DNA from: Candidatus Omnitrophota bacterium | GTDB taxonomy: Bacteria; Omnitrophota; Omnitrophia; Omnitrophales; Aquincolibacteriaceae | DNA: 64,000 nt | Direction of reading: 5' to 3' | Assembly (NCBI GenBank): GCA_049324575.1 | Contig: JBMONI010000004.1 | Location: forward strand, 43,960 to 107,959 | Shown: in pieces, positions 6,272 to 59,373 of the stretch | How the letters are laid out: every line of letters begins with the position of its first letter | Position numbering within the stretch: position 1 is the first letter of the stretch | The notes under the pieces: generated by a model | The model's input: only the letters and a program-made list of their open reading frames with translations | What the model was told of the DNA's origin: nothing | Databases searched by the model: none | Translations under genes and position numbers: made by a program

Positions 6272-6424
6272 ATTCCCCTCTTTTCGTGTTCTTTGTGAAA
6301 AACAGAATCCACCGAAAAGTTACCCGTTTTTTTAGTGATTACAAGAAGCGGACACAAAAAAACCATGATTTTTCAGAAATTTTTTGAGTAGTCGTTAAAA
6401 AGGTTTGAAAAACTTTTTCGTCAA
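6272..6424 (-). promoter_or_regulatory. AT-rich intergenic region, putative promoter/5' UTR of the 1..6271 gene
   Basis: Marked drop in GC between the terminator hairpins and the ATG at 6271. No confident -35/-10 assignment. Confidence 0.25.
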
Positions 6425-6490
6425 AAACAAAACTGCGGCCATGCAGTCCGCCTACTTCTGTAGGGCAGGTTTAAACCTGCCCTACAGGTT
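6425..6490 (-). terminator. Putative intrinsic terminator of the giant gene: 30-nt perfect palindrome followed by a second hairpin and a T-run
   Basis: CTGTAGGGCAGGTTTAAACCTGCCCTACAG at 6458..6487 lies 28-57 nt downstream of the TAA at 6517-6515. The minus strand then reads CTGCATGGCCGCAGTTTTGTTTTTG (5-bp stem, T-run). Confidence 0.5.
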
Positions 6491-6514
6491 TTGAGGAACC
6501 GACTCGAATCCCGA

Positions 6515-9500
6515 TTACGCGGACTGCGCGACGATTTGGGCCATTTCGAACTTCTGCGCGATCATTTGTTCCACGGTCAACTGGATCACATTTGCACCGC
6601 CCAGGCTTAGATCCTCGTCGGTCACCACGATGATCTCGCCTTCGATCGGCACCGCCGCCGTCAAGAGAAGTCCGGTATTCTTTTCCACAGTCGCTTTCAT
6701 CGCATAGACACGCCGTTCGGTCACCGCACCCTGTTCAGCAAGAGCCTCAGCCAGAATCGCTTCGACCGGCTGTGCGATATTGACAAAGGCAACACGCGCA
6801 TCGCGGATCTCGCCCTGCAGCATAAGCAGTTTGTCACTGGTCGCGCGAACGATCAGACGGTCTTTCTCGCCAAGGCTCGCAAGCCGGTCATTTAGTTCCG
6901 TGCGCTGATCCACACTCCAACCTGTCTGCCAATCAATGACAGTGACACCGCCCTGAGCAACGCCACTCGCAACCACCGCCTGCCGCAACGCTTCATTGGC
7001 CGCATTGGCCTGAGCAAGCATCTGGACCACGCGCATCTCAGTCGTACTTGTAAGGGCATCCCCAAGCCCCGCAGGCATCTCTTCCCGAAGTTCCGCACGC
7101 GGGCCCGGTTTCTTCTTTCCTTTCGGCTGTTGAGCCGGCACTGAAGCCTTTTTCGCCTCCGTCGTTGAGGGCCGCTGCCCCGTAGCAGGCGCCACCGAAC
7201 TCTGGGGTTGGGCTGGCAACTGTCCTTGTAGCGCCTCCGAAGATTTCGGGGATCCAGTTGCCGTGGCTGGCGGTATTTGCGACTTTTTATCTTCTTTATC
7301 TTCTTTATCTTCTTTCGGGAAATCCCTCTTGTCTTTTTGATACGTCAAGTAAAACGCCACCAGATTCCCCGTCTGGGCAAGCACAAGGAAGATCAACGCA
7401 ACCAACGGGATCCAATGATGCGCAGAAACAACATAAAGTATCCCCGCGGCGAAGATTGGCAACCCAAAGGCGACCCCAGACGCCGCGACACCCAGCCCGA
7501 TCCCTAAGGCCTTAAGCGCTTTTTGCCAGAAGCTGATCCTGGCCAAAACACCTTTTAATTGTTCCCGATCATTCACATATTCGAACAGATTAGGCTCGAA
7601 ATGATCCATAAATTCGGACGTTTTATTTTTTGAACTGAAGGAATCGCGGATCTCAAAAAATATTTCCAGGAATTTGGTCGTCGCATGCAACACACGCCCC
7701 GCCATGCTGGTCAGGATCAGGCCGGAAACGAATAACGCAAAAATATTTCCGAAGCTTCGTCCGACCTCTCCGGCAATGCCGGGAAGGGCCCATTGCTGCA
7801 TGATCCCCAGCGCATAGACAGACCCCGAGATCAACGCCGCCCCGATCAGGAAAAAGCCGATCGCGCTTCCCAAATGCAGCCACCCGGTCTGGATCCGATG
7901 CAAGGATACCCTTGCAATATCGATCTCCTTCGGCTTTTTCGGCTTAATGATCTGCTCCTGCCGGTATTGGCTGAAATCATGTTTGACGCTCTCCCAATAA
8001 GACACCCAAAAACTCGCTTTCCTGGTGATCGGACCAATCCGGAAATTGCGGAACTTATTCCACCACTTTACGGCAGGGGCTCCAAGATTTTGCCAAAAAT
8101 GCGGATAACGCGGCTCCTGGATGGAGCTCGCCTTACGTTCGAAGGAGGTCCATAAATACATGAAACCGGTCAAGAGCGCTGTCCCTACCGCCGTGATCAA
8201 TAGAATACCGCCCAAAGTCGCCACGATCGCCATGCCCGCAGAGAGACCGAAGATCGAATGGAAAAGCACGAAAATCACAGGCGCCGAAAGGATGGCGGAG
8301 CCTCCCACCAGAATCGCCAAGGCGGTTGCGAAATTTTTGATGCTGAATGGACGGACCGGAGATCCTTGAAGCTTTCGCATAAGCTCGAAATACGGAAGAC
8401 TGGCTTTGTCGATCGCCTTCCTCTCCCCCGTTCCCAGCGCCGTTTCATAGGCCGCTACCATTCCCTTCATCGCCGTCACACGCGCTTCGACCATGGCCGC
8501 TTCGGAGGCTTCTCTTTCCGGCAATTCTTTCTTGGCCAGGGCCGCCATTGCCTCGAGGGTCTTGGCCTTGGAGAGGTCGATCCTCGAATGGATGTCCCAA
8601 TCCCGCGGTTTCGCCGAAAACCACATCATCATAGGTCCAAAACTCCAACTCCCGATCAAAAGGATCATCCAGTTGATCACCTCCACCTGCGGCGACAAGA
8701 GCAGGATCGAAAGGATCGTGCCAAGCGCCATCCAGTACGAAGGGGTCATTAGATGGAAAGACGCTTTCAAGGTCAGGAACGAGGTATTTCCGCCCACCGC
8801 GGTCATGATCCCCCAGGGAGACGGCTCCGGACGGATCTTGACGAAAGAGGCAACGCTTTTGATCAGCATAGAGCCAAAGGTAAATCCGGCCCAGAGCATG
8901 AATAGCCATTGGGACACGACGGGATGACTTGTGAGAAACGCTGTTAAAGGGGCCCATCCTAATTGCTGAAGCCCAGGCAGTATCACCGCCCACAAATGCG
9001 CCAAAGCGGGAGTGAAGAGGATAAGACCCAAAGCCGCGAGATAAGCCGTAATCGCCACGGTCAAAGCCAACCAACCGACCGCAACAAAGCGATTCGACAG
9101 CCGATGCAACGTCATTATCGCTAAAACGACCGCAATGCCTATGGAAATCATGAAAATATAGGGCGCATAGGCTCCGCTGATCCAAAGGACCGAAACAAGG
9201 ATGGGCGCAACCGCAATAACAACTCCGAGCAACCCTTTCCCGATCTGGCCTTTGTCGGCGAGCGTATCGCGAATCGTGGTTTTCCAAGAGGGTTTCGTCG
9301 CATCGAGTGGATGAATACCTTCCGCCCAGTTATGCAGAAAGTTATTCACCGCCAATTTGGCCTCGATCACGAAGTTGTTCAAATACAACTGGTCCATGAA
9401 AAACTGCGCGATCTTGTCCCGCAGCGAAATGGACGGAATGGTCCCCGAGAACGCCCGGTAAATAAAGAAGATCACGAATGAGAACACCGCCACCACGGCT

Positions 9501-12500
9501 CCTACCGGTTTCCAGAAAGGAGGGATCGCCAGTCCCAACAAAAGCGCGAAGACGACCCCATACGCCGCCATAGGAATGACATGATGCGGAAGGTCCGATT
9601 TTAAAGCGGCCCACAGATGGTTCAGGAATTTGGTTTGGGCTCTGGCTTCTTCGATCTCCTCATCCAACGCTTCGATCTCCTCATCCAACGACAGACGAAC
9701 TTCCGCCCGTTCAGACGGTTCCGCGGTTTCTGCGTCTTCGGCCCCGCCCCGCTTTTCACGCGCCTCCTCCATGGCTTTTTTTCGGGCAAGTAATTTTTGA
9801 TATTTTTCCTCCGCCTTGATCTGCCGGTAACGAGCGTTTTTCAACAAAATAACCACGAGAAGGACTGCGACGATCACGATCGCTGTCCCGATAGGATCGA
9901 CGGGGATACCAAAATACTGAACGATCAGTTCCGCGATCGAACGGTTCGTGAACGACATCAGGGACGGAAGATCCGCGAGCCTCGCATGAATACCCAAGGA
10001 CCCGACCCCGATAAAACCGTTGACAAGGAATGCGAAGAACAACAGGCTCGATAGATACATTTTCAGCCCCAAGGCGATATTGTTGCGGTCCGTCGAGCTT
10101 CCCCCCGGTCCCAACAAAACCATCACATACCAGGGCAAGGTCCCGCGGAACCAACGCTGGGAAGCGCGTGCCACCATTTCTTGAAGGCTTTTGACGACCT
10201 GCTCGATAACGATCGCTGTGCGGACCACCAGCGATCCGCTCTGGAACCCTTCTTCATAGTCGTGGGACAGCTGATTGAAAAACAAGGTCGCAAAAGCACC
10301 CCCATAATGCCGCATCTCATACGCCCCCAAGATCCCGCCGCCAAAAACGTAGCCCATAAAGGCCCCGAGTCCGGCTCCCAACAATAAAGAGCTTCCGCCG
10401 ACCGCTACGATCAACAGCATACCCAAGCTGGACCCGAAAAGCGCTCCGAGGATCGAGCCTTGAAGGAAAGCCGCTTTCACCTTTTGATATTCATGCTTGT
10501 ACCCATGCAACCATCCATGGAGATCCACGATGAATTTCCCCGACGGGTCCGTTTGGGCGCTCGAGATCACCCATTTTGCATTGGCGAAAAACTCACCGAT
10601 GATACCGGCCTTGTGGACCTGATCGGCAAACAGTGTCCGTAAGTGATCGCTCATATAATAGACCGGCTGGCCAAGCGCATATCCCGGCCGCCGCAGCATT
10701 TCATGCAAAGACTTTTGGATCGAAAAGACCGCTTCATTCATCTCGATCATCAGCTCCCCGACCGATCCGATCTGCGCATCGGTGATCTCGAACTCATCCC
10801 TGCGACTGCGCAGTTCCCTCTGGATCGCATTCTGCAGATCACTCATCGACATCCGATCGGGATTCTGGATCTGCAGGTATTTCGTCGCGAACCAGTCCAG
10901 AGCCTTACGCCATTCCATGCCGATCTGGTTCTTTTCATCCATGGTGAACGCGTATTTGAGGCGGTTTGGATCATCCGTATCCAGCGCCACCTGTTTTTCA
11001 TACTCGAATCTCAAGACCAGTGAATCGATCACAGCCAATCGCTGCCGCGCCGCGGCATCCTTAGGATCTTTCGTCGCCGCTTCTTGGGCTTTCTGCTTTA
11101 ATTTATTAAAAGCTTGCTGATAGCGGTACGCATAAACATCCTGCACCTCGGGAATGGAAATGTCCGTGCCTGTTCCGTTCAAATAGCGCTCGGCTTTTTT
11201 CGGATTTCCCGCGATAAAAATATTCCGTCGATCTCTGAATTCGGCATCGGTCATCCGGTGTTCTGCTTCAACTCCGGGATTATCCACATGGACCCACCCG
11301 AGCTCGGCCAAATTGGCGAAAACGACATCCAACCTTGCGTTTGTCGCGACCGATGCAGGAGAAAGCTCGATCCCGCGCGCGAATAAAAGATCAAGTTTGT
11401 CCGGAACGTTTGCCTCTTCTTGGGCCTTCTTCAGCGCTTTTTGGGCTTTCTTCAGCGCATCTTGGGCCTTCGCCAACTCTTCTTGGGATGCCGTCGCCGC
11501 TTCTTGGGCACTCGGCGCTTCTTGAGCCTTCCCCAGCGCTTCTTCGGCCTTCTTCAGCGCTTCTTGGGCCTTCTTCAGCGTCTCTTGGGCCGCGGCTCGC
11601 ATCCGAATCAGAAATGCCTCAAAGGTCTCTCCCGGGGATGCCTCTTGGGCATATTTTTCAAGATATTTCGTAACCGCCTTGCGCACCTCTTTATCCTGGA
11701 CCATTAAGGTCGTACTTCCGGACTCGAATAAGGTCTTGAGGGCGACAAGGATGAACGCCGCGAACAAAACCGTCAAAGTGACACTCCACGCCAGGCTCGC
11801 TCCCAAAGCCATCAAAGCCCAATAGACCACAGGGCCAACGAAGAATGCCGTAATCCCCGCCAGGATCGGCATCGGAGGAAGCGATATCCCCATGAAACGC
11901 GTCTCACTGACGACGAGATTGCGTCCGACATATTTTTCGCTTTGGACCTCAGGGTATCTGGACCCGTCTCCCAAGAATCTCAATTGATCGACCATGGACC
12001 CGTATTTCTTGGAAATGTTTTTGATCGTTTTCAAAGCGCCACGGTGGAAAAGATTGAATCGGGCGAACCTTCCCTTCTTGACTTCCGCCTGATTCGTCAC
12101 TTCCACATCGATGATCTGATCCATCAAAAGAGCCGGGCCTTGGTAGCCAGTCTCATAGATCGCCAACGAGATATTACGGCCAGGATTCGCTTCACCGGTC
12201 GCCTGAATATTTGACATCACAGTCTTCCGGAAGGTATCCATATCCGGCAATCCCGTGATCACGGTCATGAGAACACGCTTATCGCGCGGCACACCCTGCA
12301 CGTTGCTCGGCGGAGGGGCCCTGTCAGATCGTCTTTGCGCCGCCGCGGCTGTCTCTTGCAGGAATTGCTGACGATCCCCAGCAATAAACTTCTCGAACTC
12401 CTCCAATTCCCTCTTTTGATCTGCATCCAATTCCGGCGCAGGCGGTCCCAACACCGCCGACATTTTTTTCTCGGAAACCGTTTTGTCCAGAGGCACTTGC

Positions 12501-30500: not shown

Positions 30501-33500
30501 CCCGCCACGGCGTCGATCTGTCTCTGCAAAGTCTCGGCCGCCGTCCCCAGCATCAAAAGTTCGATCGGATCGAAGGCCATCCCCAGGAAGATCCCTTTGG
30601 CCGGATCGTCAAACGTTTTTGCCCGGCGAGTCGCATCGACGATCCCCTGGCGGAAAAGCGCTTCCCGGAAATCGGCCGAACGGCCTTCGCCCATCTGGCG
30701 AAGCATCATGCTCATCAAGGGATTCTGGATCAGGAGGGTGGTGATCCGTTTCAGGTCTTTCCGCTCGCCGCGGGATAGTTTTTTGAGAATGGCGTAATAG
30801 TCGAGCTCGGCCGCGTCGCTCAGCTCTTGATCGAGCGTCCTTCCTTCTTTTTTCTGCTCCTTGTGGATCGCGGCGATCCGGGCCCGCTGTAAAAGTTCAT
30901 CGCGGTAGGGCTCCACGATCGGCGCCACGATCGGATCGATCGTGGTCGATGCAAAGGTGTTCACAAGCCCAAGCGCTCCGCTGTAGACCAGTTTCGCCTC
31001 GAGGGGCGTGGGCCGGCCCAGCATCTGTTCCTGCTGTCCCAGCATTTCCAGGGTCGCTTGGTCCCCTTCCACCAGTTTGACGAGCGGAGAAAGGATCGGT
31101 GCTCCCGCCGCGTCATCGAGGCCTTCGGCACCGCCCACGGCGCCCCCGATCTCATAGGTCACGAACCAAAGACCGGCCGCCGTAATAAGGACCGAAGCCC
31201 AGAATTCGGGGCTGGTGATCACCCGGTTAAAGACCGCTTTCCGCGCATTGCGATAAAAACGGTTCAGGTTCGACGGATCAAAAAGCGCCGGCAAGATCAA
31301 ACCGGCCTGGGCTTTCTTGGAAATTTTTATCTTGGGAATCTCCGCGTCGATCCTCGCCAAAAGGAATTCGCGGTCCCGCGCCTTGAGATGAAGCGGGGCC
31401 TTGCGCAGCCGGCTTTGGGGCACGAGATAGCGGCGGATTCCTTCGAGGGCGAGGCGTTTTTGCACCGCCGAAAGCCCGGATCCGCGGGCCAAGATGGCAT
31501 CAAGCAATTGATGAACACCCGTATGGGTCGCGCTCGTAAGGTGAAATTTTTTGATATCGATCCCAAGTTTGCTCAGACTAAAATTGAGCATGCGGGCCAT
31601 TTCGGTCCGCACCCCCTGATCGACCTGCGTTTGCAGATTCAAAAAGAAGGCAAGAAAGATAGGGCTGGCAACGCCGCCGATCGAAAGATTGAGCGGGATG
31701 TTGTGCATCATGCCGAATTCGCCGACCTGGATCAGCGCCCCCTGGTCGACCAGGTTCCACGACCCGCCGAGATGCGACCATTCGAGGAAGTGATGGATGA
31801 GAGGATGCTGACCGGCCGAAAGTTCGACCAAAGCCGTATCGGTCGGATGATACCCGAGGAACACCAAAAGCCCGAAACTCACGAACGAGATCAAAAGCAG
31901 GGTCGCGGCTTTTTTGACGAACGCCTCTTCGGTGAGATCGCCCCGCGCGCGGGCCTGCATGAGGATCACCATCCGGAAGAGCACGAACGCAAAATAGGCC
32001 ACGCTGAAAAGGATCAGGGACTTCCCCACCAGCATAAGCGCAAGCGACGAAACCCCCGAATAAATGAACAAACGCAAGCGTTTGGCAACGAACGTCGCGG
32101 CGCCGGTGACGTAAAACGCGTGGGAGGCCGTCGCGGCCCAGTATCGCGCGCGCTCGGTGCTGAGATCGATCTTCTGCTCGGCGGGGATGGCACGGACCTC
32201 GTTGGCGATCCACTGCACTTCCTGGTCCGTAAGCCATCGTTTTTGGTATGCACCCGTCCAGAAATAATCGATCGAGACGCGGAAGAAATTGAAGATGAAA
32301 GAATCGAACAGATGCCATAAGGCTTTAAAAGGATCGATGACGGCTTTCGCCAGCAACGTAATGACCGAGATCCCGGGGTCCCGCATTTTCAAAAGCACGA
32401 TCGAAGAAAGGGCGTGGACCACATAGAAGCCGATCAGCATGCCGTACAAAATGACCGCCGCATTCAGCGTCACGACCCCGAGGGCTCCCAAGATCAGGAC
32501 GGCGGCGAGACCAGCCCCGATCTCCACCACGCTTCGCACCACCGATTCCACTTTACTTTGGGCCATCGCCCCTTTGGCTTGGCCGAGGATCGTGTTCGCC
32601 TCGACATACTTCCAGTAACTTTTGGCCCGGAGACGGATCCGCGCCAATTCGCGTTTGGCAGGGTCCGTGATCCCATTCAGCGTATCCGTCACCCCTCGGT
32701 CTTCCCAGGTCCGGTCTGTATCAAGCCCCGCACTGATCCCGAGCACCCCTTGGCCTTTTTTGATCCCCTGCCAGCGCTCGCTGTCGGGCGAAGCCTCTTC
32801 GCCGGGACGCGTTTCGACAAGATCCGTGTAGGTCACCCGGGTCTCATTGATCGCCCTGATCGCGGTCCACCCCAGGACGATGACGAGAACTGCCCAAAAC
32901 CAAATTCCGAATACCGAATAGGGCCAGGCCACCGCGGTCATTTGCCCGGTAAGAATCCCGGCATGTGAGATCAGGAAATTCGCGATCATTCCCGGGATCA
33001 CGCCATAAAAGACGATCCGTCCCGCATAGCGCTGGGCAAAAATACGGAAACCGTTCCGCACCTGCTCGACGACGCCCGGCTTTTTCACCGCAGGCGCAGG
33101 AGCGGGTTTTTGGGCGGCCGTAGCTTTCGCCGGACGGGACGGTGCCGGCTGAACTGCCGCAGGCGCGGGTTTTTTAGCGGTCCAGGCGCTCCAACGGCTC
33201 TTGATCGACTGCGCGAACGCCCCCAAAGCGCTCTGGCTTCGCTGCCAACCTCGGACCGTCAGTGCCCCAAGCGCGGCCGCAACGCTCCGCACCTTCTGCC
33301 ATGCTACCCCCCACCCTTTCCCGATCACCCTCCAAGCCTTCTGAATACCCTGCCAACCTCCCGCCATCTGCTTCAAAACCGCTTGCCCGGCATTCCGGAT
33401 CCCATCCAAAGGTTTTTTAGCGGCCACGGCTGGAGCGGGCGCTCCGGTGATCGAGGAACTGGGCGCTTGGGGAAGCGGCGGCTGCGCCCCCGGCACACTC

Positions 33501-36499
33501 GGCGCTGGCGGGGCCGGAACAACCGCAAGAAGTGTCTTCAGCCGTTGGCTCAATCCCGCGACTTGAGTTTGGTTGACTTTGATGTCGGCCGCAACAATTC
33601 CGGGGCTTTCGAGCCGGGCCAGGATCTTCTCAAAAAGAGGTCTTTCCGCTCCCTCGACCGGCTCCTTGCTATCTTGTTTCTTTTTAATAAGCGTCGTCAG
33701 AAGTCCGTGGTTCTTTTGACTCGCAAGCATCGGCCCGGCCCAAATCCGGCGGAGACGGCCCAGAAGTTTCTGGATCGGCGGCTCGTGTCCCGCGAACCAT
33801 TCGGCATCGCGGTTCGGCAATTCTCCGATGCGATCTTCCAGCGCCACGAAAAGACCGGCAAGGCTTTTCCATTGTTCATAAGGCTCACTGCCGTCAATCC
33901 CTGTGATCCCTTGTTCCAAATATTGCAGATCCTTTTCGATCGCCTGCAGTTCGGCATCCAGCGGATGGAGAGCGGGCTGGGCCGGTTGGGAAGCAGGCGT
34001 TGCAGGCTTCTTTTTCGAAGGCGCACGTTGCGCTTTTTCGGAAGGCGTCGCGGACTCTTTCTTTTTTGCGCGGACCTCGCTTCGGATCGTGGCCCCTTCA
34101 ACCCTCGCACGCGCCTGACCGATCAAATACTCCGCAAGCGTATTGCCTTTCATTCGGTCGCGCTGACCGAAAAGATCGATAGCCCCGAGAAGGATCCTCT
34201 GTTGCTCTGCCGTGATCCCGGGCTGTGTCAGGAGACTCACCTGGTCGAGAACGCCTTGGGCAAGGGCACTTGCAGCAGCCGCCTGATCCACACCGCGCCC
34301 CATGGCCTGCTCCACTTTGTCCGAATCAACAATACCGAATGCAACCCTTTGATTTCCGGGAAGATCGATCTCCTGAAGAAGTGATTGAGAGTCCAGGCTC
34401 AATTCCGTCCGGGCCTGAGCGCCGGCGGGAAGCCGGGCAAGAACCAGGCTGGCATCCTCGGTCAGCCGGACCGCCAAAATCTTTTTTCCACCCGCTCGCC
34501 GGGTCTTCAGTTCATCATAATGGCTAATGGCCCCGACCATCCTCCGGATATCCGTCGCCAAGGCGTTCCCGGCAAATGCCTGTCTGGCCAGTTCCAGATT
34601 CAACGGACCGCTCGCGGTCCCGAAAGGAAGATGCGCATCAAATACGCTTTCGGCAGCCATCCAAAGGACCATGGAGAGGTTCAGGGCCTGTTGAGGGTTT
34701 TTCAGCATCCAGTCGAGAAGTTCCTGACGAGTGGCTAGCAGATGGGTTTCGCCAGTCAGGATCGAAACAAAATCCCTTGCCTCCGCACGCGGGACCAAAG
34801 CCTTGCGCGCGGCCAATTGGAACCGCGGATCGCTCAAAGTGTTTTGCCCCAGGGAGGCGATCCCGCGAAGCAGGATCTCCTCGACTTTTAGGGGTTTCTC
34901 CGCCAGGGCGTCCTCGTAGCGGCGGGTCGTTTTCCGTTCGTCGATCATTTTCGTGATCGCGGGCGTGACGACCCAGTAGGAATATCCGTGCTCGCGTAGG
35001 TAGCGTTCGATCCCCGGCGTGTGGAAACCGCCGGTGACGATCGCCGAAATAGGTTCTGCGCCGACCTCGGCCTTTTGAACCGCTTTTTCGATCAAGATCC
35101 GGTCACGCGCCAGAGCGGCCGCATAGAACCGCTCGACACGCGTCAGATCCTGATCGAGGATCTCCAATTGGGACGGCAATCCGTAGGAGAAACGATGTTG
35201 ATCTAAAAGCGGTGTCAAAAGGGAGGTCAGTTGCGCAGAAACGAAATCGCCGCGGTGCGCGTAATAGTACTCGGCGTCCTGCACCGTCAGCGTGAATTCG
35301 AGCATTTTTCGGGCCACATCGAGCACGCGGTAAAGGCGGTCCAGCGCGCGCGAGGCCTCGTCGGTAAAAAGTTTTTCTTTCACAAGCCCTTCGAGCTTCT
35401 CGATGTCCTCAAAGACCTCGGCGCCGACGCTTTTCTGAAGCCGGTGATATTCGAGATAACCGAGCACTTCCCGGTAAAGCTCCGCATCCCGGACTTTGAA
35501 TGCGCGGGGCCCCGCCAGGAGGCCGCGGATCTCGGTCTCGAGATAGCCGTAATAGATCTCCTGCTTCATCCGGCCGGTCTTGTACTGCGCGGTATTAGCG
35601 AGATAGCGCGACAGACGGTCGCGACCCAGGTCCCCTTTCAGGTTTTTCATCGCTTCTTCGGTCCGCACCTCGACCTCGGAAGCCTTCATCGTCCGTTCGA
35701 TCGCAAGCAAGCGCGTAAGCGCCGCGAGCCCCGGCATCCCCTCAAGGGGAAGGGAGAATTTTTGAGCGTAGGAGCCGAGAAGGTCCGCGTACGCGACCAG
35801 CCGGTGTCCGTTCGTCTGGAAATCAGTGCGGGTTTCGTGCAATTTGCGGAGGTCTTCCGAAAACACAAACCGTGCGAGCCCGTTCAGGACCCTCTCGACC
35901 CCGGCGAGCAGCTCAAGATCGCGCTCTTTGAAGCTCATCGCGTCGAGATAGGCCTGCCGGTTCTCCTCGTACTTGGCGGAGTCCTCCACGCCGTAAAGCA
36001 CAAGGTCCGGTCGATCCACGATCGCAAGATATTCGGGCCCGGTCAGGCGCGCTTCCTTGAGGAAATAATCGGCCACCGTCTGTTTGGCGTTTCGATCCGG
36101 GAAACCGCGAAAGATATCGGTATAGAGTTCGCCGTCCGCGCCTTCGAGATTCACGAGTTTGAGACCGTAATTCGCGGCGAAATGATCGAGGATGCGCGCG
36201 ATATTATGCTGGGCTTCTTCGTTGGCGTGCGCGTCCTGGATATGGATAAACACGTGGTCGGGACGGCCTTGAAAGACTGTTTTGACCTTTCCGAATTCGG
36301 ACGGCAGTTGAAGACGATGGATCAGGTCTTTGGACGGACCCGCAAGTGCGGCCCCGGCGTTTTCGGAAGCCGCTGGACGGTTTTGCGAAAGGCCGATCCC
36401 ATCCGCCCAGATAACATTCGTTGTGATGAAGAAGAAAGTGGTGAGAGAAGCAATGAAGCGAAGCCAAGGTCTAAATGTGGGTCTTTGCCACTCTAACAT
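6515..36499 (-). CDS. Giant 9,994-aa predicted polytopic membrane protein with an N-terminal signal anchor, ChaN/Tiki-like N-terminal domain, Pro/Ala-rich linkers, coiled-coil Lys/Ala/Glu repeats and several clusters of TM helices; function unknown
   Basis: Single uninterrupted ORF in the track. ATG at 36499 follows a ~400-bp AT-rich spacer. N-terminus MLEWQRPTFRPWLRFIASLTTFFFITTNVIWA is hydrophobic. Dense hydrophobic helices occur around aa ~1180-1700, ~6200-6400 and ~7300-9400. It shares its N-terminal domain with the 1..6271 gene. No catalytic motif recognised by eye. Confidence 0.8.
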   Translation of the reverse strand: MLEWQRPTFRPWLRFIASLTTFFFITTNVIWADGIGLSQNRPAASENAGAALAGPSKDLIHRLQLPSEFGKVKTVFQGRPDHVFIHIQDAHANEEAQHNIARILDHFAANYGLKLVNLEGADGELYTDIFRGFPDRNAKQTVADYFLKEARLTGPEYLAIVDRPDLVLYGVEDSAKYEENRQAYLDAMSFKERDLELLAGVERVLNGLARFVFSEDLRKLHETRTDFQTNGHRLVAYADLLGSYAQKFSLPLEGMPGLAALTRLLAIERTMKASEVEVRTEEAMKNLKGDLGRDRLSRYLANTAQYKTGRMKQEIYYGYLETEIRGLLAGPRAFKVRDAELYREVLGYLEYHRLQKSVGAEVFEDIEKLEGLVKEKLFTDEASRALDRLYRVLDVARKMLEFTLTVQDAEYYYAHRGDFVSAQLTSLLTPLLDQHRFSYGLPSQLEILDQDLTRVERFYAAALARDRILIEKAVQKAEVGAEPISAIVTGGFHTPGIERYLREHGYSYWVVTPAITKMIDERKTTRRYEDALAEKPLKVEEILLRGIASLGQNTLSDPRFQLAARKALVPRAEARDFVSILTGETHLLATRQELLDWMLKNPQQALNLSMVLWMAAESVFDAHLPFGTASGPLNLELARQAFAGNALATDIRRMVGAISHYDELKTRRAGGKKILAVRLTEDASLVLARLPAGAQARTELSLDSQSLLQEIDLPGNQRVAFGIVDSDKVEQAMGRGVDQAAAASALAQGVLDQVSLLTQPGITAEQQRILLGAIDLFGQRDRMKGNTLAEYLIGQARARVEGATIRSEVRAKKKESATPSEKAQRAPSKKKPATPASQPAQPALHPLDAELQAIEKDLQYLEQGITGIDGSEPYEQWKSLAGLFVALEDRIGELPNRDAEWFAGHEPPIQKLLGRLRRIWAGPMLASQKNHGLLTTLIKKKQDSKEPVEGAERPLFEKILARLESPGIVAADIKVNQTQVAGLSQRLKTLLAVVPAPPAPSVPGAQPPLPQAPSSSITGAPAPAVAAKKPLDGIRNAGQAVLKQMAGGWQGIQKAWRVIGKGWGVAWQKVRSVAAALGALTVRGWQRSQSALGAFAQSIKSRWSAWTAKKPAPAAVQPAPSRPAKATAAQKPAPAPAVKKPGVVEQVRNGFRIFAQRYAGRIVFYGVIPGMIANFLISHAGILTGQMTAVAWPYSVFGIWFWAVLVIVLGWTAIRAINETRVTYTDLVETRPGEEASPDSERWQGIKKGQGVLGISAGLDTDRTWEDRGVTDTLNGITDPAKRELARIRLRAKSYWKYVEANTILGQAKGAMAQSKVESVVRSVVEIGAGLAAVLILGALGVVTLNAAVILYGMLIGFYVVHALSSIVLLKMRDPGISVITLLAKAVIDPFKALWHLFDSFIFNFFRVSIDYFWTGAYQKRWLTDQEVQWIANEVRAIPAEQKIDLSTERARYWAATASHAFYVTGAATFVAKRLRLFIYSGVSSLALMLVGKSLILFSVAYFAFVLFRMVILMQARARGDLTEEAFVKKAATLLLISFVSFGLLVFLGYHPTDTALVELSAGQHPLIHHFLEWSHLGGSWNLVDQGALIQVGEFGMMHNIPLNLSIGGVASPIFLAFFLNLQTQVDQGVRTEMARMLNFSLSKLGIDIKKFHLTSATHTGVHQLLDAILARGSGLSAVQKRLALEGIRRYLVPQSRLRKAPLHLKARDREFLLARIDAEIPKIKISKKAQAGLILPALFDPSNLNRFYRNARKAVFNRVITSPEFWASVLITAAGLWFVTYEIGGAVGGAEGLDDAAGAPILSPLVKLVEGDQATLEMLGQQEQMLGRPTPLEAKLVYSGALGLVNTFASTTIDPIVAPIVEPYRDELLQRARIAAIHKEQKKEGRTLDQELSDAAELDYYAILKKLSRGERKDLKRITTLLIQNPLMSMMLRQMGEGRSADFREALFRQGIVDATRRAKTFDDPAKGIFLGMAFDPIELLMLGTAAETLQRQIDAVAGDVIHGKIPLEEGVQKARQLAADRIAQAARQAREEGAAPPPPAESPETEAKPEPEQPQPEPQAPEKVTGRFLGADGALPIQGVIPIGGWMWLENVTLASGTKLSLLDLKSRADLDSAIEVTLEKSADSSDTVAADQARRLYDFLNAVRSIQDRTGPLSEAGQKIVTEGQTPGLKDLLAIDSGVAALAFYRQYIDNDDAGMTAALSEAAAGRAADAVKAAIDGYLNGAKTLAETLALLKDVPAETPKPAPMPEEKKEETPPQEPKKEGKPAAIEARVLPLVEMTATVGELQTARVEIFRLLQAKKVEEARARFQGLAQRIADAKASTDHFVRDLEARIAAGDLTPEERSNLARGLLNAYALRKDLRPDWTFPGLIDQLGKLFGASIPPYDGLSPAAVLEARLKAIEEKMSEEDKKAFDIDLLWMRQFIENEKRKEPPPAALPGVKVGEKQAPVTAPAPTAAMVLLDQLSNLPKTMTEEQIRDIQEKLAAAGPQYKGILERGPKGNLEPMTYNDGTAGTRFWAAVDAFKADHAEIADFKFTRTISPGDRGPQVEQFFTWLANVPGFEILRELNGSRWVPRFITGYGNEEGAPWISPTIKLGDSKYSLIPEQVMSEDQAAASNFGTIAVNPALFDAWNGAEVFILLPNVYGKLELHKLTVADRGRSVQPGQFDVYNGPSLYEIAAPESTDFADQGIKGRIRSVFSKVPKDSWSQIPRTDEFFDGMARKTKFMTEYQGIFDQYLARAAKKDTEARTWFSDQLRELLERAYPSRQNRIAAEVAYALAEIDLYLKNRDVESRFIAITIASNFFKEQRKPMIFDPIDNDIRAAYKPYLPYGRTTHFLAKGIPTQGTEPAFARYVDNSPLEIVIRNFQKTNGLPVTGVIDQRTFDQIEERFASARQRRAMEEGVRLTEDIVRGPFVEIGTQDWLEPETGGIGKSQFLALVEAEMAKLKAGVLGDMQSVTTMNENIRTRMDGARSGILELFRKHYPSYVKSKVPGSDEMQIDRLIRLVPEHVRKLTGEILAAESEEARMAVAPLGVSLMNEVWPHPAEASQPAPAPDAGPAPAAPQGEAAARTEPGPVAAGGEDLPSLAELGQFIEAGALPPEWAARTASAAPKPAAEPERTAPPQPEPQPQPAAQPPAAEPPMPQAQPKAEPKPQPQPVPPVEPQPEAKAPEGLEGILAQFNADRIDLAQAIAQVEKLYGITVPASVGEGLLRQQTVLSLAVKAIRQEASLPDPEKEDKVIAIRNLETALILQDTKLQETYQKLKDANRKTRSLTWAFQEAAAGYELLAEVLTGELLGMPKVKAVDGRYGSRTDFLIKFGISRELLESRYDPISRRMDRATQKAEELQARGQPLTADDMIGVVAEYFPSRYVDEAGQALPAKRDADKAKIEPLIQAKAPVAEIIAAAIIEAAIPVTAKEKAAPPPAAKPPAVVAEPITPALRFDLRQILLGVRGDLPSAVPAVRDRLQQEYPDRNFTDEQILAGIQSFYEEHLHMQGGGFTSGELVVWGKAPSAVPGRPGKFEEYGDGSGQTNARYDAKRPVIAPYASLLFADAGPRSVVRNLMNLSTLYSSSTGEYGFFDSVDLNSNQAATRYALDNKGFEMAKALGILTGGKVHQYYAADPEVARGLEGLHIALAVADAQALDGREPNQEEKAFLHGQVVKGWGYYRAATEGSPIPADHIELENGTSKVAVYAGITGTGLYLVNLVGVRDHDGAQPAGQKVLQAGEYDRRAAAALEALEKMQRSEDGLFFQNYDRKALRPSPAEDNKEKVSSVDNFNLADSLRVFAQANQGTPLGERAQKILDKMQLAKFYDPKTRQIRHGFYPHRQNEWIASGKTVLHYGYTFEGLSSLVPLVGSGKVPAEVLKTITPTTWGGGALEQAGWSVFLDPNDARLGDLSKAYRTSAANQMQNGMSQVLTAADRAIDLILKPSAVPMEPAPEEPQLPPEPKPEFKPEDVGHGREVLAGLAALLKNFPEAGPVQAGAEVLELLKAQLAGQAAVTVGSLNNGAEQLLISAVEGRLFYEGNPLARELQARRDLSGGIVQALFRNLRDAHPGIEPWEIVFSHLMKNQSQDPKVQQMRTSIQDRHKEDPNWSETSAAWFRDAAVQAIQDVQQAGRLTDEQRALLEKILGEVIDDKTSARTIDAIEPPAQPQPEPRRVSLDSFLQRVVRHAAATYPTAMRLADAKGRETALRQWKLQVGLKGAAVPASVSAFVRLEGPVWDPSQGPRQRLGDVEVDFTDVELQKGIVFLTNAAAGLINGMLRSRSVVDSLVELEKELADLPEVARQKIADERFGGRNVESMLRQIRLERQNAQAAYVADRDRLKMLAAYLPDEAVDLEAAILDPAFYNDPAQKDTKIQEALARALPTSMRDQHPGEAREGGLHYQVALLRYQREQLQDVVKKSRERFRVRFGIELDFSLNPVAAIMNLKLPVEFSKDRPMPPIYWDIREQRHAREYAEEIRQLETQVRELAIEEAELGQRLEHAAVQWEKAKKLLRDQANYYRSGALSDALTTLPADTTRGGALSDSLPATAREVLNILGEFADLQKNLQGARNLLTQLNLAAVDLDDRLSKDQETAFKPSALPPRTADVNFVDLEERDGLSGVFLHMDARNRTGRHLTFGGERESMLQYEEVERLAGFLALRGPGEIRGRLRELMKSEQKIAKERESLRDPAAIREKTRELAALAKAKRALIYGMLDAVMPRVFQHELENTDRALQQLARKYDVGQKPEQIARELVSAIQARLNRTRGAREQIELDLQAAQNFLVRRDLLLEEQGQLRGKKATEGFAGRTTVRDISYNDQAILQKVVPQAFIDQKGKFRILQMDFEFHVGEDSVPEIMLIYQKLKAHREGEVLAERGGMVQALELYQVIAADRQRIATLKAQRDAVVKTQGMNRREMDAKPERAAQYGISLQHQDIQIGALDRSISNLTEEMNRTVRRYLRLMNNGYLPQDYDDTDPGNDYYKKFMGQVDRWNEQHEGWDGEPAMRQRIQQMFNRRFPGESFSAGSEESWGKRKLAVALSQMGFAYRNRGIDFIVIPAYGDAPYFAMDGLFAQEQAQGAEQKSFLGILWSWFDGGKKYRVKVEKATSITEGHAETMGYFDLVREQAVQREQMGRTLENTEKQREAANKKIGEIAGYTDPQGVRHGGELEQLENRKKTGAGSDRNVLELRIGLLEADLEELRDFGHVRDLAWRLMVTGMAAKPPQASRGAKTAGWLNDRATTPFDLDTAKAYGLVDRFADDQVAAHRWLYHRWHAGRSWVERLTDRMWLQQSVSLMPFNMDLALQISEPLELLFYNLQPGIDRLQADQHGFLNAAERGQQIALGRNMFVDLRTHAAILDLNTYRFSRNSALRDALAGPSTPDDTTKRIADIAEESGLAVDTQAKVVDNARQNFLRWLGFDPDRELRLPKMPLAGQDVLRLLADSSDKVLSVLERDNILNAHLKGTEANELRSRLTGIRRWIHSHLSINTSTLLYGEVAVNLVDAQASIQHAIAALDAKLSSMQTDDVRLKEAYRILLQYQVLIRAASVYAFNLPIALDNADFLRARTSGFILGDMVPGKYIQREGEWYEASVRALLAGGDVEKAANYLEALLQGKLAVTRGPVAVPYQPSKEFTEEYARLAEQAGQLGAIAERQTRAAESTPGTAVEKKPMPEPFDKQEVADGLSNKMVMPVLPKDVVSDAQVPVAKVELANALGVLAQRLFGVQLPQAFDLAAADPANETYAGEFRFSLMTPHTVRVVFEVTKKDGTKENRILDLTTDIELDKDTARKLFDGVKKIKVDPDGAVSFFADDAATVPYEFKKVAITVTEKEGTMRVTGIEGRPDEEITRAVTIRTPHETPITVTAPKGGKSIVIGIQPSDPDIQMDVLTMPVLVRVLESLGMTTEIKEAQLLVAIQYMNYLLRPGSPFAAAYADISPYIDAISKDYDLSLPLGTFLETLLSYRENTGLRMDTASTTDVKVDMRKLGLVLVYAYRFLANNPDAVPGFDPAATPMSELENSAAVEMILLKYALMEMNPDTRKNSMQPTQEDLEILKKFNFGANASEWQYQMNYPKWREIHPGGTDAEYFAHLMRVFVKQNANNVWERLFFRPLSYDDLNKKLQQLRPIAEKINGGQPLNLDRQKNIAELTMALFESYGLHFFHENESQRLKAYSTFLDMVAALMAQKAVLYDPLYPADRFNYAGILRAQEYRFLLADLRTAKALLQQAEAGLEQATPSERAMWSEKGRKANLEIAALEAKKSDLEEELRASHFKGDSKASIQYEMLNLLVERYNLERSPELKTLAAKYGITDPFRIISDLLHTVQEKLDQTKKAGQDAAAIEQDMEQARKILREMALHPVKKIEEIRAADILTLTADEQGEVVLRTAKFLSQAPTIRTILLQEGLYEALDVYDPKHHAAIRSAYEEKERMGLDWDEFRVYIRIMADVQRSNEARARSAEPEAAFWIKTPDGRSVPTFGRFAAVGWAAEAGLFALGVSRPKRDPFSTIAQAELSAAARFISGDADSWRYAGVGEKEAWKKLTIQQRQQKYSEWMGIAEKLRGEAERLYGELKSSDPDDMGLLLSLAMSVDGFVGWANADPSEREYWESLSPEQKIKIAQLILRTAARIKEPLSTILGGLDIKSPDGRDNGILLTLAKNLLMVSGREKQKLSSIRAAALRMGVDLIKEETEGRGGVRIPPIYPDPESLITVDSPKNEEKFDAYVADYTKLLEKTQDPAFQKAVHAVLGILLPGSDAKTMNWREPARLSFLLSFAEQCGLHGWDSPIAKNYPQIMKLLLDRNEASNALNDFLGKLQISADYRGEMQAMFPEMRVYLNYLAGEWTGETPKVDYQKIAHYYELMGIIDYYAGFVTDPAKPEVLVKRIEEMSEMFDAVAQLFHVDGKSDFDAIHDALQQMYVTLTVPKIEIAIGSEKYGITNHYELQRVMFLMQKHQEYLDINRKPPENYQDWEQKTTAKFKSKFVEGFLNDVQKKIQTHGGDIRGWFATYKDILALMFAEGQSMVDMELGEITGKKAEKDFGRELREDRGVDFGEDHSSISRQFFSIYKLEGMASWWLDQTDSRTAQGEVMTFDEIEQAIRSVPDLRRLISEHIPEVAYTAADIYFLVRMSLPKRIYENYFAQCKKMLEYSRKSLGRSLSLAELNEQFFAPGYFLSDWVLASRGGLSALLTALGIPDADIPEFRMRMGITNRMPGRNGAALDARLQKIDEGFAPKLKAAQAKRTEPDQVTAEEEALLQEKDAAKARILGDFLGRYFRSLGPNEDQRTILALGPQLGRILVPGSEEFNYWVAIRERLDQQHQGKPAKAAGELAQLAIVGSVATEGIRNVLAGGKPDYRKGQFLQDDQNLKTYLKHWLFTRELDPQLTDEDQKMPLNDFILKWSRRLYWNRSAFRDPQDLIQFIVERHPQVKTDTPEFREVLFLIMQDTHDFVAEASRSFQIKLDPAAIASLIVGQRFSAEAGEKSLLERARELEIAVTRYFVENFTEEETQEQHDDSAVIGVDWKARRFVDELLASEGFKDALPSKVLEKFYWAITDRSLKKTVARQIVADLKFILQQYQDHGFVQRNAGAAFDEKLINAVLELISKTRNLGLHEAGLIENPDLKTDPEMQKETYRKTKIDSENSMKTWLWQQSMRWVQTIYLTTPRETVREEKGGRSASAETTKKAEGAAQADPWLDGVENFRKKLRERILSTGLKIAPAQAVKNEEGETAQEVQRPEEVKHEEPLASHDLARRAWEYDKYGKGEENRGAFHVAVGSIFLGITGVMALLSLIIHWLTSRHRRYREGTVRTTSIEDLRRALRKLRFSGTAEEIASKRAQIEEVLDRLADPKLTRVARTQALAQLKAHLQRSEIRAALDPLEAFTKNVEEYSRQIGERRPLVKKFTPKGIALWILGMGGLYALSYYGTVLYASAPLLGLLLTLGAPVTAWIYYGLRIRHYKHSADESIIKAKMSLHLGNMLYFGTIALLLGVVFFLGMIIPDFSLIAPWYAAFYVVLFGFLSHTVMQVPLDKTVSEKKMSAVLGPPAPELDADQKRELEEFEKFIAGDRQQFLQETAAAAQRRSDRAPPPSNVQGVPRDKRVLMTVITGLPDMDTFRKTVMSNIQATGEANPGRNISLAIYETGYQGPALLMDQIIDVEVTNQAEVKKGRFARFNLFHRGALKTIKNISKKYGSMVDQLRFLGDGSRYPEVQSEKYVGRNLVVSETRFMGISLPPMPILAGITAFFVGPVVYWALMALGASLAWSVTLTVLFAAFILVALKTLFESGSTTLMVQDKEVRKAVTKYLEKYAQEASPGETFEAFLIRMRAAAQETLKKAQEALKKAEEALGKAQEAPSAQEAATASQEELAKAQDALKKAQKALKKAQEEANVPDKLDLLFARGIELSPASVATNARLDVVFANLAELGWVHVDNPGVEAEHRMTDAEFRDRRNIFIAGNPKKAERYLNGTGTDISIPEVQDVYAYRYQQAFNKLKQKAQEAATKDPKDAAARQRLAVIDSLVLRFEYEKQVALDTDDPNRLKYAFTMDEKNQIGMEWRKALDWFATKYLQIQNPDRMSMSDLQNAIQRELRSRRDEFEITDAQIGSVGELMIEMNEAVFSIQKSLHEMLRRPGYALGQPVYYMSDHLRTLFADQVHKAGIIGEFFANAKWVISSAQTDPSGKFIVDLHGWLHGYKHEYQKVKAAFLQGSILGALFGSSLGMLLIVAVGGSSLLLGAGLGAFMGYVFGGGILGAYEMRHYGGAFATLFFNQLSHDYEEGFQSGSLVVRTAIVIEQVVKSLQEMVARASQRWFRGTLPWYVMVLLGPGGSSTDRNNIALGLKMYLSSLLFFAFLVNGFIGVGSLGIHARLADLPSLMSFTNRSIAELIVQYFGIPVDPIGTAIVIVAVLLVVILLKNARYRQIKAEEKYQKLLARKKAMEEAREKRGGAEDAETAEPSERAEVRLSLDEEIEALDEEIEEARAQTKFLNHLWAALKSDLPHHVIPMAAYGVVFALLLGLAIPPFWKPVGAVVAVFSFVIFFIYRAFSGTIPSISLRDKIAQFFMDQLYLNNFVIEAKLAVNNFLHNWAEGIHPLDATKPSWKTTIRDTLADKGQIGKGLLGVVIAVAPILVSVLWISGAYAPYIFMISIGIAVVLAIMTLHRLSNRFVAVGWLALTVAITAYLAALGLILFTPALAHLWAVILPGLQQLGWAPLTAFLTSHPVVSQWLFMLWAGFTFGSMLIKSVASFVKIRPEPSPWGIMTAVGGNTSFLTLKASFHLMTPSYWMALGTILSILLLSPQVEVINWMILLIGSWSFGPMMMWFSAKPRDWDIHSRIDLSKAKTLEAMAALAKKELPEREASEAAMVEARVTAMKGMVAAYETALGTGERKAIDKASLPYFELMRKLQGSPVRPFSIKNFATALAILVGGSAILSAPVIFVLFHSIFGLSAGMAIVATLGGILLITAVGTALLTGFMYLWTSFERKASSIQEPRYPHFWQNLGAPAVKWWNKFRNFRIGPITRKASFWVSYWESVKHDFSQYRQEQIIKPKKPKEIDIARVSLHRIQTGWLHLGSAIGFFLIGAALISGSVYALGIMQQWALPGIAGEVGRSFGNIFALFVSGLILTSMAGRVLHATTKFLEIFFEIRDSFSSKNKTSEFMDHFEPNLFEYVNDREQLKGVLARISFWQKALKALGIGLGVAASGVAFGLPIFAAGILYVVSAHHWIPLVALIFLVLAQTGNLVAFYLTYQKDKRDFPKEDKEDKEDKKSQIPPATATGSPKSSEALQGQLPAQPQSSVAPATGQRPSTTEAKKASVPAQQPKGKKKPGPRAELREEMPAGLGDALTSTTEMRVVQMLAQANAANEALRQAVVASGVAQGGVTVIDWQTGWSVDQRTELNDRLASLGEKDRLIVRATSDKLLMLQGEIRDARVAFVNIAQPVEAILAEALAEQGAVTERRVYAMKATVEKNTGLLLTAAVPIEGEIIVVTDEDLSLGGANVIQLTVEQMIAQKFEMAQIVAQSA
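7288..7316 (-). repeat. 9-bp x3 coding microsatellite (atcttcttt) inside the giant gene
   Basis: It encodes EDKEDKEDK in the giant protein. Confidence 0.7.
11413..11592 (-). repeat. Coding tandem repeat (~21-bp units, about 8 copies) inside the giant gene
   Basis: cttcttgggccttcttcagcg-like units. They encode ...AQETLKKAQEALKKAEEALGKAQEAPSAQEA...AKAQDALKKAQKALKKAQEEA in a coiled-coil-like heptad pattern. Confidence 0.7.
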
Positions 36500-36902
36500 C
36501 TGGGTTGCCGTCCCTCTGTTAGGCGTTGCGACCTAGCAACACCTTATTAAATCCTTTTAATTATCTTTACTTCTGTTTCTCCAAACATAAGTCTACCATG
36601 GGATTAGGTCTAAGTCAAATAGCTAAATATTCTTTGTAAAATGCACAAGAATCACCTTTTTCTGAAAAAATCGCTGCCTTATATTGAAAATAGATTAAAT
36701 TTCCTTAATCGGAGAATCGGATTTTTGAAAAATTCTTGGCATAACAAATCCCCTTATCCGCCCGAACGGCTTCCAAGGGGTTCTGAGGGGCATGGAGTAG
36801 GCGGAATGCGGCAAGATCCCAAGATCGATAGGGCGCCTTGAAAGGTGCCCTGGCCTAGGAAAGATCGCTTTGTGAGCTTAAAGCGGATGGACAGAAGCAA
36901 GA
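36500..36902 (-). promoter_or_regulatory. AT-rich ~400-bp spacer between tRNA-Ala and the giant gene start; putative promoter/leader of the giant gene
   Basis: GC falls sharply (e.g. ttattaaatccttttaattatctttacttctg...). The only ORFs are short and implausible. Confidence 0.3.
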
Positions 36903-36978
36903 TGGTGGACCCGACCGGGATCGAACCGGTGGCCTCCACAATGCGAATGTGGCGCTCTCCCAGCTGAGCTACGGGCCC
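36903..36978 (-). tRNA. tRNA-Ala (anticodon CGC)
   Basis: Reverse complement is GGGCCCGTAGCTCAGCTGGGAGAGCGCCACATTCGCATTGTGGAGGCCACCGGTTCGATCCCGGTCGGGTCCACCA. It has a 7-bp acceptor stem with the G3:U70 alanine identity pair, a D-loop with GG, anticodon loop TTCGCAT (CGC), T-loop TTCGATC and an encoded CCA. Confidence 0.9.
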
Positions 36979-37008: not shown

Positions 37009-37045
37009 GGGGTATTATACACAAATCCCCCGCCTTGACTACGCT
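37009..37045 (-). promoter_or_regulatory. Possible sigma70-like promoter for tRNA-Ala (perfect TATAAT -10; weak -35)
   Basis: The minus strand reads ...GTAGTCAAGGCGGGGGATTTGTGTATAATACCCCG... about 35 nt upstream of the mature tRNA 5' end. The -35 element is poor. Confidence 0.25.
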
Positions 37046-39710: not shown

Positions 39711-39723
39711 GGGCTCTCGAGAA

Positions 39724-59364: not shown

Positions 59365-59373
59365 TTTTTCCAC

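Follow-up and report, generated by a model that had tools for sequence, protein, structure and literature searches.

The locus analysed here raises the question of what a bacterium might do with a protein of almost 10,000 residues, and of whether the reading frame that encodes it is real. In silico analysis was performed on a stretch of 64,000 nucleotides (nt; hereafter the window) from a Candidatus Omnitrophota bacterium (assembly GCA_049324575.1, contig JBMONI010000004.1, positions 43,960-107,959), in which a single minus-strand open reading frame (ORF), starting with ATG, occupies positions 6515-36499 and comprises 9,994 codons. Judged by its coding signal and its homologues, this giant ORF is one real gene, from an uncultured member of the Omnitrophota, and our favoured reading, to which a probability of approximately 0.6 is assigned, is that it encodes an envelope-anchored multi-enzyme platform. 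This reading is built on two putative catalytic domains, i.e. a TIKI-like domain at the N-terminus (the head) and a circularly permuted domain from the clan of beta-1,2-glucanases (SGL).

The reading frame and its flanks

The original prediction described one uninterrupted frame bracketed by a leader and a palindromic terminator, and this description is borne out by the ORF listing, the coding statistics and the sequence of both flanks, where the following features were identified:

6515..36499, minus strand: giant ORF, 9,994 codons, ATG start, TAA stop (ORF listing, coding statistics, Logan gene call)
36500..36760, minus strand: AT-rich leader with GAGGGA approximately 9 nt 5' of the ATG (read directly from the sequence)
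6430..6487, minus strand: two hairpins 3' of the stop codon (sequence read)

The first hairpin (6458-6487) is formed by a perfect 12-bp stem, CTGTAGGGCAGG-TTTAAA-CCTGCCCTACAG, while the second (6430-6449) is a terminator-like stem with a T-run. The only stop in the translation of the giant ORF is the terminal one, whereas the closed minus-strand frames counted in the adjacent region (n=2) carry 96-116 stops per approximately 2,170 codons (i.e. 4-5%), so that a chance origin of a 9,994-codon run, the probability of which is in the order of e^-450, is out of the question. The guanine-plus-cytosine (GC) content at the three codon positions follows the order GC1 > GC3 > GC2 in all 1,000-codon blocks, GC3 remains at 0.61-0.72 along the whole length, and codon usage resembles that of the neighbouring genes (cosine 0.93). 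Overall GC falls from approximately 0.59 to approximately 0.53 along the gene; this shift sits in codon position 1 and is attributed to amino acid (aa) composition. Since the N-termini of homologues align with the giant protein from residue 1, the assigned ATG is taken to be correct. Additionally, Logan contig SRR32167788_3473 (66,985 nt) displays 100% identity over window positions 34917-55843, thus spanning only the first 1.6 kb or so of the gene, and its gene call from the same ATG records a product of 9,994 residues. Two assemblers therefore concur on the 9,994-aa gene call, while the underlying reads of both assemblies may be identical.

The TIKI-like head and the SGL-like domain

The features on which a functional reading depends are located as follows:

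36401..36499, minus strand: signal peptide or signal anchor, aa 1-33, with a charged N-region (R6, R10, R14) followed by a hydrophobic segment
34790..36322, minus strand: head domain, aa ~60-570, TIKI/EreA/ChaN/TraB-superfamily fold (alpha/beta core, helical insert of ~290 aa)
27839..27916, minus strand: PG_binding_1 (PF01471) match, aa 2862-2887, 26.4-30.3 bits versus a gathering score of 23
24830..25981, minus strand: SGL-like domain, aa ~3507-3890 (HMMER relatives, profile against PDB, weak but consistent AlphaFold2/Foldseek results)

Residues 1-33 constitute either a Sec signal peptide, perhaps with cleavage after IWA, or a signal anchor; the AlphaFold2 model places a helix at residues 7-32, and the segment is kept in homologues. 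The head that follows measures approximately 510 aa and carries a candidate active site composed of D89, H91, E119, R465 and H493. The 2His/2Glu pattern published for the TIKI family (E3900/H3902/E3930/H4030 in RRSP, H85/E113 in Bcr135; PMC6254334) maps to D89-x-H91, E119 and H493, with an identical His-to-Glu spacing of 28 residues and with Asp in place of the first Glu. Among 137 head sequences, H91, E119, R465 and H493 are identical throughout and D89 in all except one (136/137), while the GGFH turn is invariant. The AlphaFold2 model of the head (mean predicted local distance difference test score, pLDDT, 78.7) displays the parallel beta-sheet core with flanking helices that typifies the TIKI/EreA/ChaN/TraB superfamily, and PMT (2ebf) and RRSP (5w6l) occur among its lower-ranked matches. 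The tentative ChaN/Tiki/TraB-like assignment made in the original prediction is thus supported at the superfamily level by sequence pattern and model, and the head apparently keeps a complete candidate catalytic constellation with an intact hydrolase site. The accompanying claim that the protein has no recognisable catalytic domain is not supported, given this constellation and the second candidate catalytic domain at aa ~3507-3890.

The head shares with the TIKI/TraB/PrgY/erythromycin-esterase/ChaN superfamily the pattern [D/E]-x-H, 28 residues, E and H, and it resembles RRSP of the MARTX toxins in being one module within a very large multi-module protein. PrgY and TraB are extracytoplasmic and membrane-tethered, an arrangement resembling the one predicted for the head. 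Unlike the superfamily, the head has a core that is split by the ~290-residue insert, an Asp for the first Glu, and no sequence-level match to any of the superfamily's Pfam or NCBIfam models, including curated ones such as TraB_PrgY_gumN, Erythro_esteras and Cofac_haem_bdg.

A homologue search with aa 1-1650 retrieved 44 proteins, nearly all of which are annotated as 'hypothetical protein, partial' and derive from metagenome-assembled genomes (MAGs) of Omnitrophota, a small number coming from Elusimicrobiota and Auribacterota; all 44 match only the first ~570 residues of the giant protein, at their own N-termini and with 22-48% identity. The metagenome search for homologues at similar loci that had been proposed at the outset was carried out, using alignment A3 for locus finding (alignment A2 being too divergent), and it yielded 157 fetched loci, namely 77 from a scan of GTDB genomes and 80 of the 251 from a scan of Joint Genome Institute (JGI) metagenomes, many of the Omnitrophota loci sharing tRNA synteny as described below. 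The head begins ORFs at all 157 loci, which are mostly long with few stand-alone cases, and the 77 loci from titled genome records all belong to Omnitrophota or to MAGs with no taxon in the title. Most of the head-bearing ORFs extend past 3,000-3,900 aa, and at 73 of the 85 loci that offer 3,000 aa or more of downstream sequence the fetched DNA ends without the ORF having closed. Neither scan returned a head relative closer than approximately 50% identity. NUDIX, GT2, metallophosphatase, kinase and PGM domains are found in other relatives with the head. On the basis of these searches, the conserved head is common to hundreds of other giant genes. Five loci (L143, L147, L151, L154 and L155) encode stand-alone proteins of approximately 546-554 aa with little beyond the head (28-29% identity), which would be handy for biochemistry.

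Pfam and NCBIfam searches, run on halves and on 1,000-aa tiles of the giant protein, yielded PG_binding_1 above threshold and a sub-threshold match to PF10091 ('Glycoamylase', aa ~3503-3601; E 1.9e-4), the remainder being noise. No matches indicative of an RTX or Ig-repeat adhesin, a nonribosomal peptide or polyketide synthase or a beta-helix protein were obtained in these searches and no long internal repeats were found, in agreement with the original prediction, which had set such proteins aside. A word-indexed search with aa 3445-3930 returned nothing, while an exhaustive HMMER/phmmer search of 1.84 billion representatives identified 164 relatives of the SGL-like domain at E <= 1e-3 and 38 at E <= 1e-10, so that the word-indexed negatives reflect the prefilter. 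PF10091 was detected in 10/10 and DUF3131 in 9/10 of the relatives tested. A profile built from the giant protein and six relatives of the same layout matched, in the PDB, full-length Cgs structures (8rf9 and 8rf0, E 1.7e-62) and the beta-1,2-glucanase EeSGL1 (8xuj, E 1.2e-29), as well as 8wy1 and GH144 structures. Relative to 8wy1, 8rf9 and 8xuj, the SGL-like domain shows a circular permutation in which the ~100 residues of the canonical C-terminus (the YGFxDSVD region) stand at the front; BLAST coordinates against Cgs-like proteins display the same segment swap, and the canonical order of the (alpha/alpha)6 barrel is consequently not followed.

The catalytic residues of the clan were placed via printed alignments. 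The general-acid Glu (E211 in CpSGL, E221 in EeSGL1, E1356 in TiCGS; PMC12102758, PMC10834661) corresponds to E3848, and the candidate base (E142 in CpSGL, D149 in the 'VDNG' motif of EeSGL1; PMC12102758, PMC10834661) to D3777 in SSVDNFNLA, both of which are invariant in alignment A4. The Glu of the GSMFE motif (E1400 in TiCGS) corresponds to E3881 and, among the clan aromatics (XcSGL F286 and Y367, mapped by motif only), the Tyr is conserved as Tyr3578 of YGFFDSVD. Conversely, the GH189 nucleophile (E1442 in the WGISE motif of TiCGS; PMC10834661) falls on Pro3513 (WGKAP), and this position is Pro, Ser or Val across the permuted subfamily. With the acid and base retained and the GH189 nucleophile absent, the domain has the appearance of an SGL-clan hydrolase and not of a transglycosylase of the Cgs type, and catalytic activity is plausible though not certain. 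In its PF10091/DUF3131 homology, general-acid Glu, VDN Asp and predicted (alpha/alpha)6-type domain it resembles the clan (GH144/162/189/192-194), while it differs in its permutation, the missing GH189 nucleophile, a loop deletion, an apparent Phe-to-Leu change and its position within a 10,000-aa chain.

The combination of head and permuted SGL domain within one ORF recurs in P0045 and L117/L118, and L107 and L153 each possess a separate canonical SGL-like gene, 2-4 kb upstream of the giant gene that carries the head. In these last two loci, which belong to one clade, the region in question (L107 3301-9492, L153 1281-6166) encodes a GH57 branching-type enzyme, an S11 DD-carboxypeptidase with PG_binding_1 and a 720-734-aa protein with PF10091 and DUF3131. 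This recurrence in fusions and neighbourhoods provides a modest link, drawn from gene content, between head genes and envelope glycans. The PG_binding_1 and SGL-like functions of the neighbours in L107 and L153 are present as fused modules in the giant protein of the window, and L107 additionally encodes a Cu-oxidase_4 (PF02578) protein and EF-P.

Membrane segments, linkers and the locus

Hydropathy analysis identified approximately 30 candidate transmembrane (TM) segments in three clusters in addition to the N-terminal hydrophobic segment. Translation, hydropathy and tandem-repeat analysis agree with the architecture set out in the original prediction (anchor, globular domain of ~500 aa, Pro/Ala spacers, heptads and three TM clusters), and the remaining parts of the chain are as follows:

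33065..33547, minus strand: Pro/Ala-rich linker region, aa ~985-1145 (PAPPAPSVPGAQPP...; translation)
30920..33052, minus strand: membrane module 1, aa ~1150-1860, with 7-8 hydrophobic helices; first TM cluster at aa 1162-1788
26990..27382, minus strand: Pro/Gln/Glu/Ala-rich linker, aa ~3040-3170 (PQPEPQPQPAAQPPAAEPP...; translation)
11738..13249, minus strand: second hydrophobic-helix cluster, aa 7751-8254, ~6-7 helices (hydropathy)
11416..11591, minus strand: Lys/Ala/Glu heptads (ALKKAQE), aa ~8304-8362, a 21-nt x 8.5 tandem repeat
7376..10453, minus strand: third and largest hydrophobic-helix cluster, aa 8683-9708, ~16-18 helices (hydropathy)
6518..7102, minus strand: C-terminal soluble tail, aa ~9800-9994, with no detectable relatives

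Membrane module 1 is shared, at 23-28% identity and with the motif HLxDxF...RxxIxYF...RW, by a subset of the other head-bearing ORFs; it has no Pfam relative, and a PDB profile search returned noise only. Among relatives, its eighth helix (aa 1770-1788) remains hydrophobic and shows strong conservation. The approximately 6,000 aa between this module and the second TM cluster are non-repetitive, and tile-against-tile BLASTP and phmmer comparisons produced nothing convincing in the way of internal repeats beyond the 21-nt array. PDB sequence searches with both halves of the protein returned noise only, PADLOC gave zero matches, a metagenome scan queried with aa 4001-6000 came back without a relative, and a word-indexed search with aa 7701-9750 found nothing, though that prefilter also missed the relatives of aa 3445-3930. 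Two further candidates were discarded: a 3D/DPBB lytic-transglycosylase-like domain perceived by eye at aa ~2590-2680, which was unsupported by Pfam at E <= 10 and by phage tblastn, and weak matches to MdoH, Ctr and V-ATPase-f within the TM clusters, which lie far under their cut-offs and were taken as hydrophobic noise.

Immediately downstream of the giant gene lies a second large gene that had been overlooked in the original prediction, and a tRNA gene is situated upstream:

1..6271, minus strand: paralogue downstream of the giant gene, with its ATG at 6271 and still open at the window edge (2,090 aa or more)
36903..36978, minus strand: tRNA-Ala(CGC), co-oriented, 404 nt upstream of the giant ATG

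The downstream paralogue encodes a signal anchor, a TIKI-like head, TM segments and five HEAT_2 matches, and its head, at 26-29% identity to that of the giant protein (E 2e-13 and 2e-9), keeps the FIQDAH, EEG, ARD and GGFH motifs. Apparent plus-strand ORFs within positions 1-6500 were dismissed as out-of-frame artefacts of this minus-strand gene. In six related loci (L004, L008, L021, L035, L042 and L046) a second head match occurs a few kb upstream of the main one, and tandem paralogous head-bearing genes thus seem common. A co-oriented tRNA-Ala(CGC) gene is found 276-2,523 nt upstream in at least 11 related loci (L002, L009, L011, L013, L016, L018, L024, L029, L033, L062 and L064), and tRNA-Gly(CCC) takes that place in four (L014, L020, L044 and L057). 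GCG is the commonest Ala codon of the giant gene (47%).

The neighbourhood of the giant gene is, according to its domain matches, rich in envelope functions. Three Wzy_C (O-antigen-ligase-like) membrane proteins (50071-51465, 55286-56746 and 59610-61031) and two SPOR-domain, i.e. septal peptidoglycan-binding, proteins (44917-45843 and 62398-63084) are encoded upstream. An ORF at 63047-63817 (minus strand) aligns with a GH1 beta-glucosidase over its C-terminal third only (positions 284-449 of the 453 in the profile), and the remainder would be disrupted or fall outside the window; GH1 enzymes tied to beta-1,2-glucan use have been described (PMC12369401). Directly upstream of the tRNA, a lipid-related run (37039-41246) comprises an alpha/beta hydrolase, an AMP-binding acyl-CoA-synthetase-like enzyme and an enoyl-CoA hydratase, beyond which a cNMP-binding patatin-like phospholipase is encoded (41275-43287). 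The Logan gene calls place two small PilZ genes (43489-43881 and 44530-44904) on either side of a YajQ/DUF520 gene (44030-44527), approximately 7 kb upstream; West-Roberts et al. (10.1101/2023.11.21.568195) have noted PilZ genes in the vicinity of giant genes. The long minus-strand ORFs at 51508-55134 and 56740-59373 exhibit an atypical composition (GC2 close to GC1) and no Pfam matches, and the former is probably not a gene, as the Logan annotation places a 435-aa plus-strand gene within it (52756-54063).

Proposed function, alternatives and relation to other giants

According to the favoured reading, the signal or anchor would place the head outside the cytoplasm, the chain would be threaded into the inner membrane, and the peptidoglycan-binding and glycosidase modules would probably also lie outside the cytoplasm. 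Such a platform, rooted in the inner membrane, would present its hydrolytic and wall-binding modules to the periplasm or at the cell surface. There it may attach to the cell wall, break down glycans of the envelope or periplasm (of the beta-1,2-glucan type) and cleave peptide or ester bonds, acting either on the envelope of the cell itself or on that of a host or prey, as has been suggested more broadly for the giants of Omnitrophota (10.1101/2023.11.21.568195, 10.64898/2026.06.07.730766). Eight helices in module 1 would leave the 6,000-aa middle outside, which suits PG-binding and glucanase-type modules, while seven would make it cytoplasmic.

Several observations weigh against this reading. 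The choice between seven and eight helices, on which the location of the middle region depends, is not decided by the flanking charges, and for approximately 85% of the giant protein neither a relative nor a domain could be detected. Pfam, NCBIfam and PDB sequence and profile searches do not pick up the head (aa 1-1000, even at E <= 10), and Foldseek on its model gave no significant match (best E 0.3, with EreC, Bcr135 and HopBA1 listed), probably because the ~290-residue helical insert splits the core. The PG_binding_1 match spans only the C-terminal half of its profile (positions 31-56 of 57). In the SGL-like domain, the PF10091 score of 21.4 bits is under the gathering score of 27, the clan-defining Phe of GSMFE appears as Leu3880, a loop of approximately 40 residues is deleted, and the AlphaFold2 model is mediocre (pLDDT 63.5), all of its Foldseek matches having E > 1e-3 (the top match being 8xuj at E 2.3e-3 and the others (alpha/alpha)6 enzymes). 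Finally, type II secretion and pilus genes, which are reported beside many giants, were not seen in the window.

The alternative that survives best, while still doubtful, is that the ORF is a delivery format for a polyprotein precursor, which would be exported and then cut at its Pro/Ala linkers with the TIKI-like head as processing protease. The apparently intact and fully conserved hydrolase site of the head would suit such a role, as would the long low-complexity linkers between modules, the endopeptidases such as Tiki and RRSP in the TIKI family (PMC6254334), and the other Omnitrophota giants that begin with a peptidase domain (C39 or S8) close to the signal peptide and for which self-cleavage has been suggested (10.1101/2023.11.21.568195). 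However, no recurring cleavage motif was found at the linkers, the superfamily also holds esterases and non-enzymes such as ChaN and PMT, and the existence of stand-alone head proteins of ~550 aa indicates that the head need not serve a giant chain.

Somewhat less probable is a mainly structural role as tether or adhesin, in which a long, membrane-rooted helical fibre or scaffold would tether the cell to its host or prey, or would organise the cell's own envelope, with enzyme-like modules that are binding or vestigial. Most of the chain is indeed devoid of an enzymatic signature, the SGL domain is degenerate in its deletion and Phe-to-Leu change, a PG-binding motif accompanies a coiled-coil-like heptad repeat, and the downstream paralogue is a HEAT-repeat scaffold. 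The non-repetitive sequence, on the other hand, is unlike that of known fibre or adhesin giants, the identity of the head catalytic residues in 137 sequences argues for catalysis, and approximately 30 TM helices far exceed what an anchor needs.

It is quite improbable that the protein is a cytoplasm-facing machine that makes or remodels the cell's own periplasmic glucans. While the subfamily profile finds its best PDB matches in Cgs cyclization domains, a faint NCBIfam match to MdoH/OpgH occurs at aa ~8770-8832 and seven helices in module 1 would render the middle of the protein cytoplasmic, the nucleophile required of GH189 is lost in the whole permuted subfamily (Pro3513 in place of TiCGS E1442; PMC10834661), no glycosyltransferase or GH94 domain was found with Pfam or NCBIfam, the MdoH score is 16.9 bits versus a cut-off of 419, and the signal peptide and PG_binding_1 point outside the cytoplasm. 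Least credible by far is an assembly chimera of two or more misjoined genes, or an open frame that is not expressed as one product, since the GC drop, the exclusively short-read type of the assemblies and the lack of close relatives for aa 4001-6000 and 7701-9750 are outweighed by a GC change confined to codon position 1 at constant GC3, the absence of internal stops, the second assembler's identical product and same-head relatives that are also open beyond 3,900 aa.

The statement that genes of this size are very rare in bacteria needs context, as giants rich in TM helices, and a cell-wall-degradation hypothesis for them, are already documented in Omnitrophota (West-Roberts 2023, 10.1101/2023.11.21.568195; Nielsen & Lui 2026, 10.64898/2026.06.07.730766). 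In some samples 24-28% of Omnitrophota contigs encode a protein of 10,000 aa or more, and of the 916 such long proteins in the 2026 catalogue 94% possess a signal peptide or TM helices, the mean number of helices being 22, and 15% have no domain match (10.64898/2026.06.07.730766). The gene is a further member of this documented class and is not unusual for the phylum. Like the 'Archaeovorin' and multi-enzyme classes, it combines a very long ORF, an N-terminal signal peptide and many TM helices (approximately 30 here) with divergent embedded carbohydrate-active and wall-binding modules in mostly unannotatable sequence, and its head-bearing relatives carry the NUDIX, GT2, metallophosphatase, kinase and PGM domains known from those classes. 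Unlike the published giants, it falls, at 9,994 aa, under the size thresholds used (>30,000 aa; >=10,000 aa), it lacks SecA_DEAD, C39, S8, dockerin, TSP3, GT, methyltransferase and NUDIX Pfam matches as well as long repeats, and it has no type II secretion or pilus genes beside it in the window. Neither West-Roberts 2023 nor Nielsen & Lui 2026 mentions a TIKI-like head, tRNA linkage or PF10091, and three features appear undescribed in the papers searched: the TIKI-like head as an N-terminus shared by many giants, its locus next to a tRNA gene, often with tandem copies, and the permuted module of the SGL clan.

A speculative and rather unlikely reading is that the head and the conserved 7-8-helix module constitute an undescribed, phylum-wide 'starter cassette', i.e. 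a dedicated periplasmic hydrolase and a membrane device that would process, insert or export their own chain; this would explain the presence of the head on hundreds of otherwise unrelated giant ORFs, the tRNA-linked locus and the tandem duplication. The finding bears on the question of how tiny-celled bacteria make, insert and use proteins of 10,000-150,000 residues, the greater part of whose sequence is unannotated, and it offers three handles on that question: a separately expressible head that marks a large gene family, a conserved membrane module, and a permuted domain of the beta-1,2-glucanase clan that suggests a specific glycan target.

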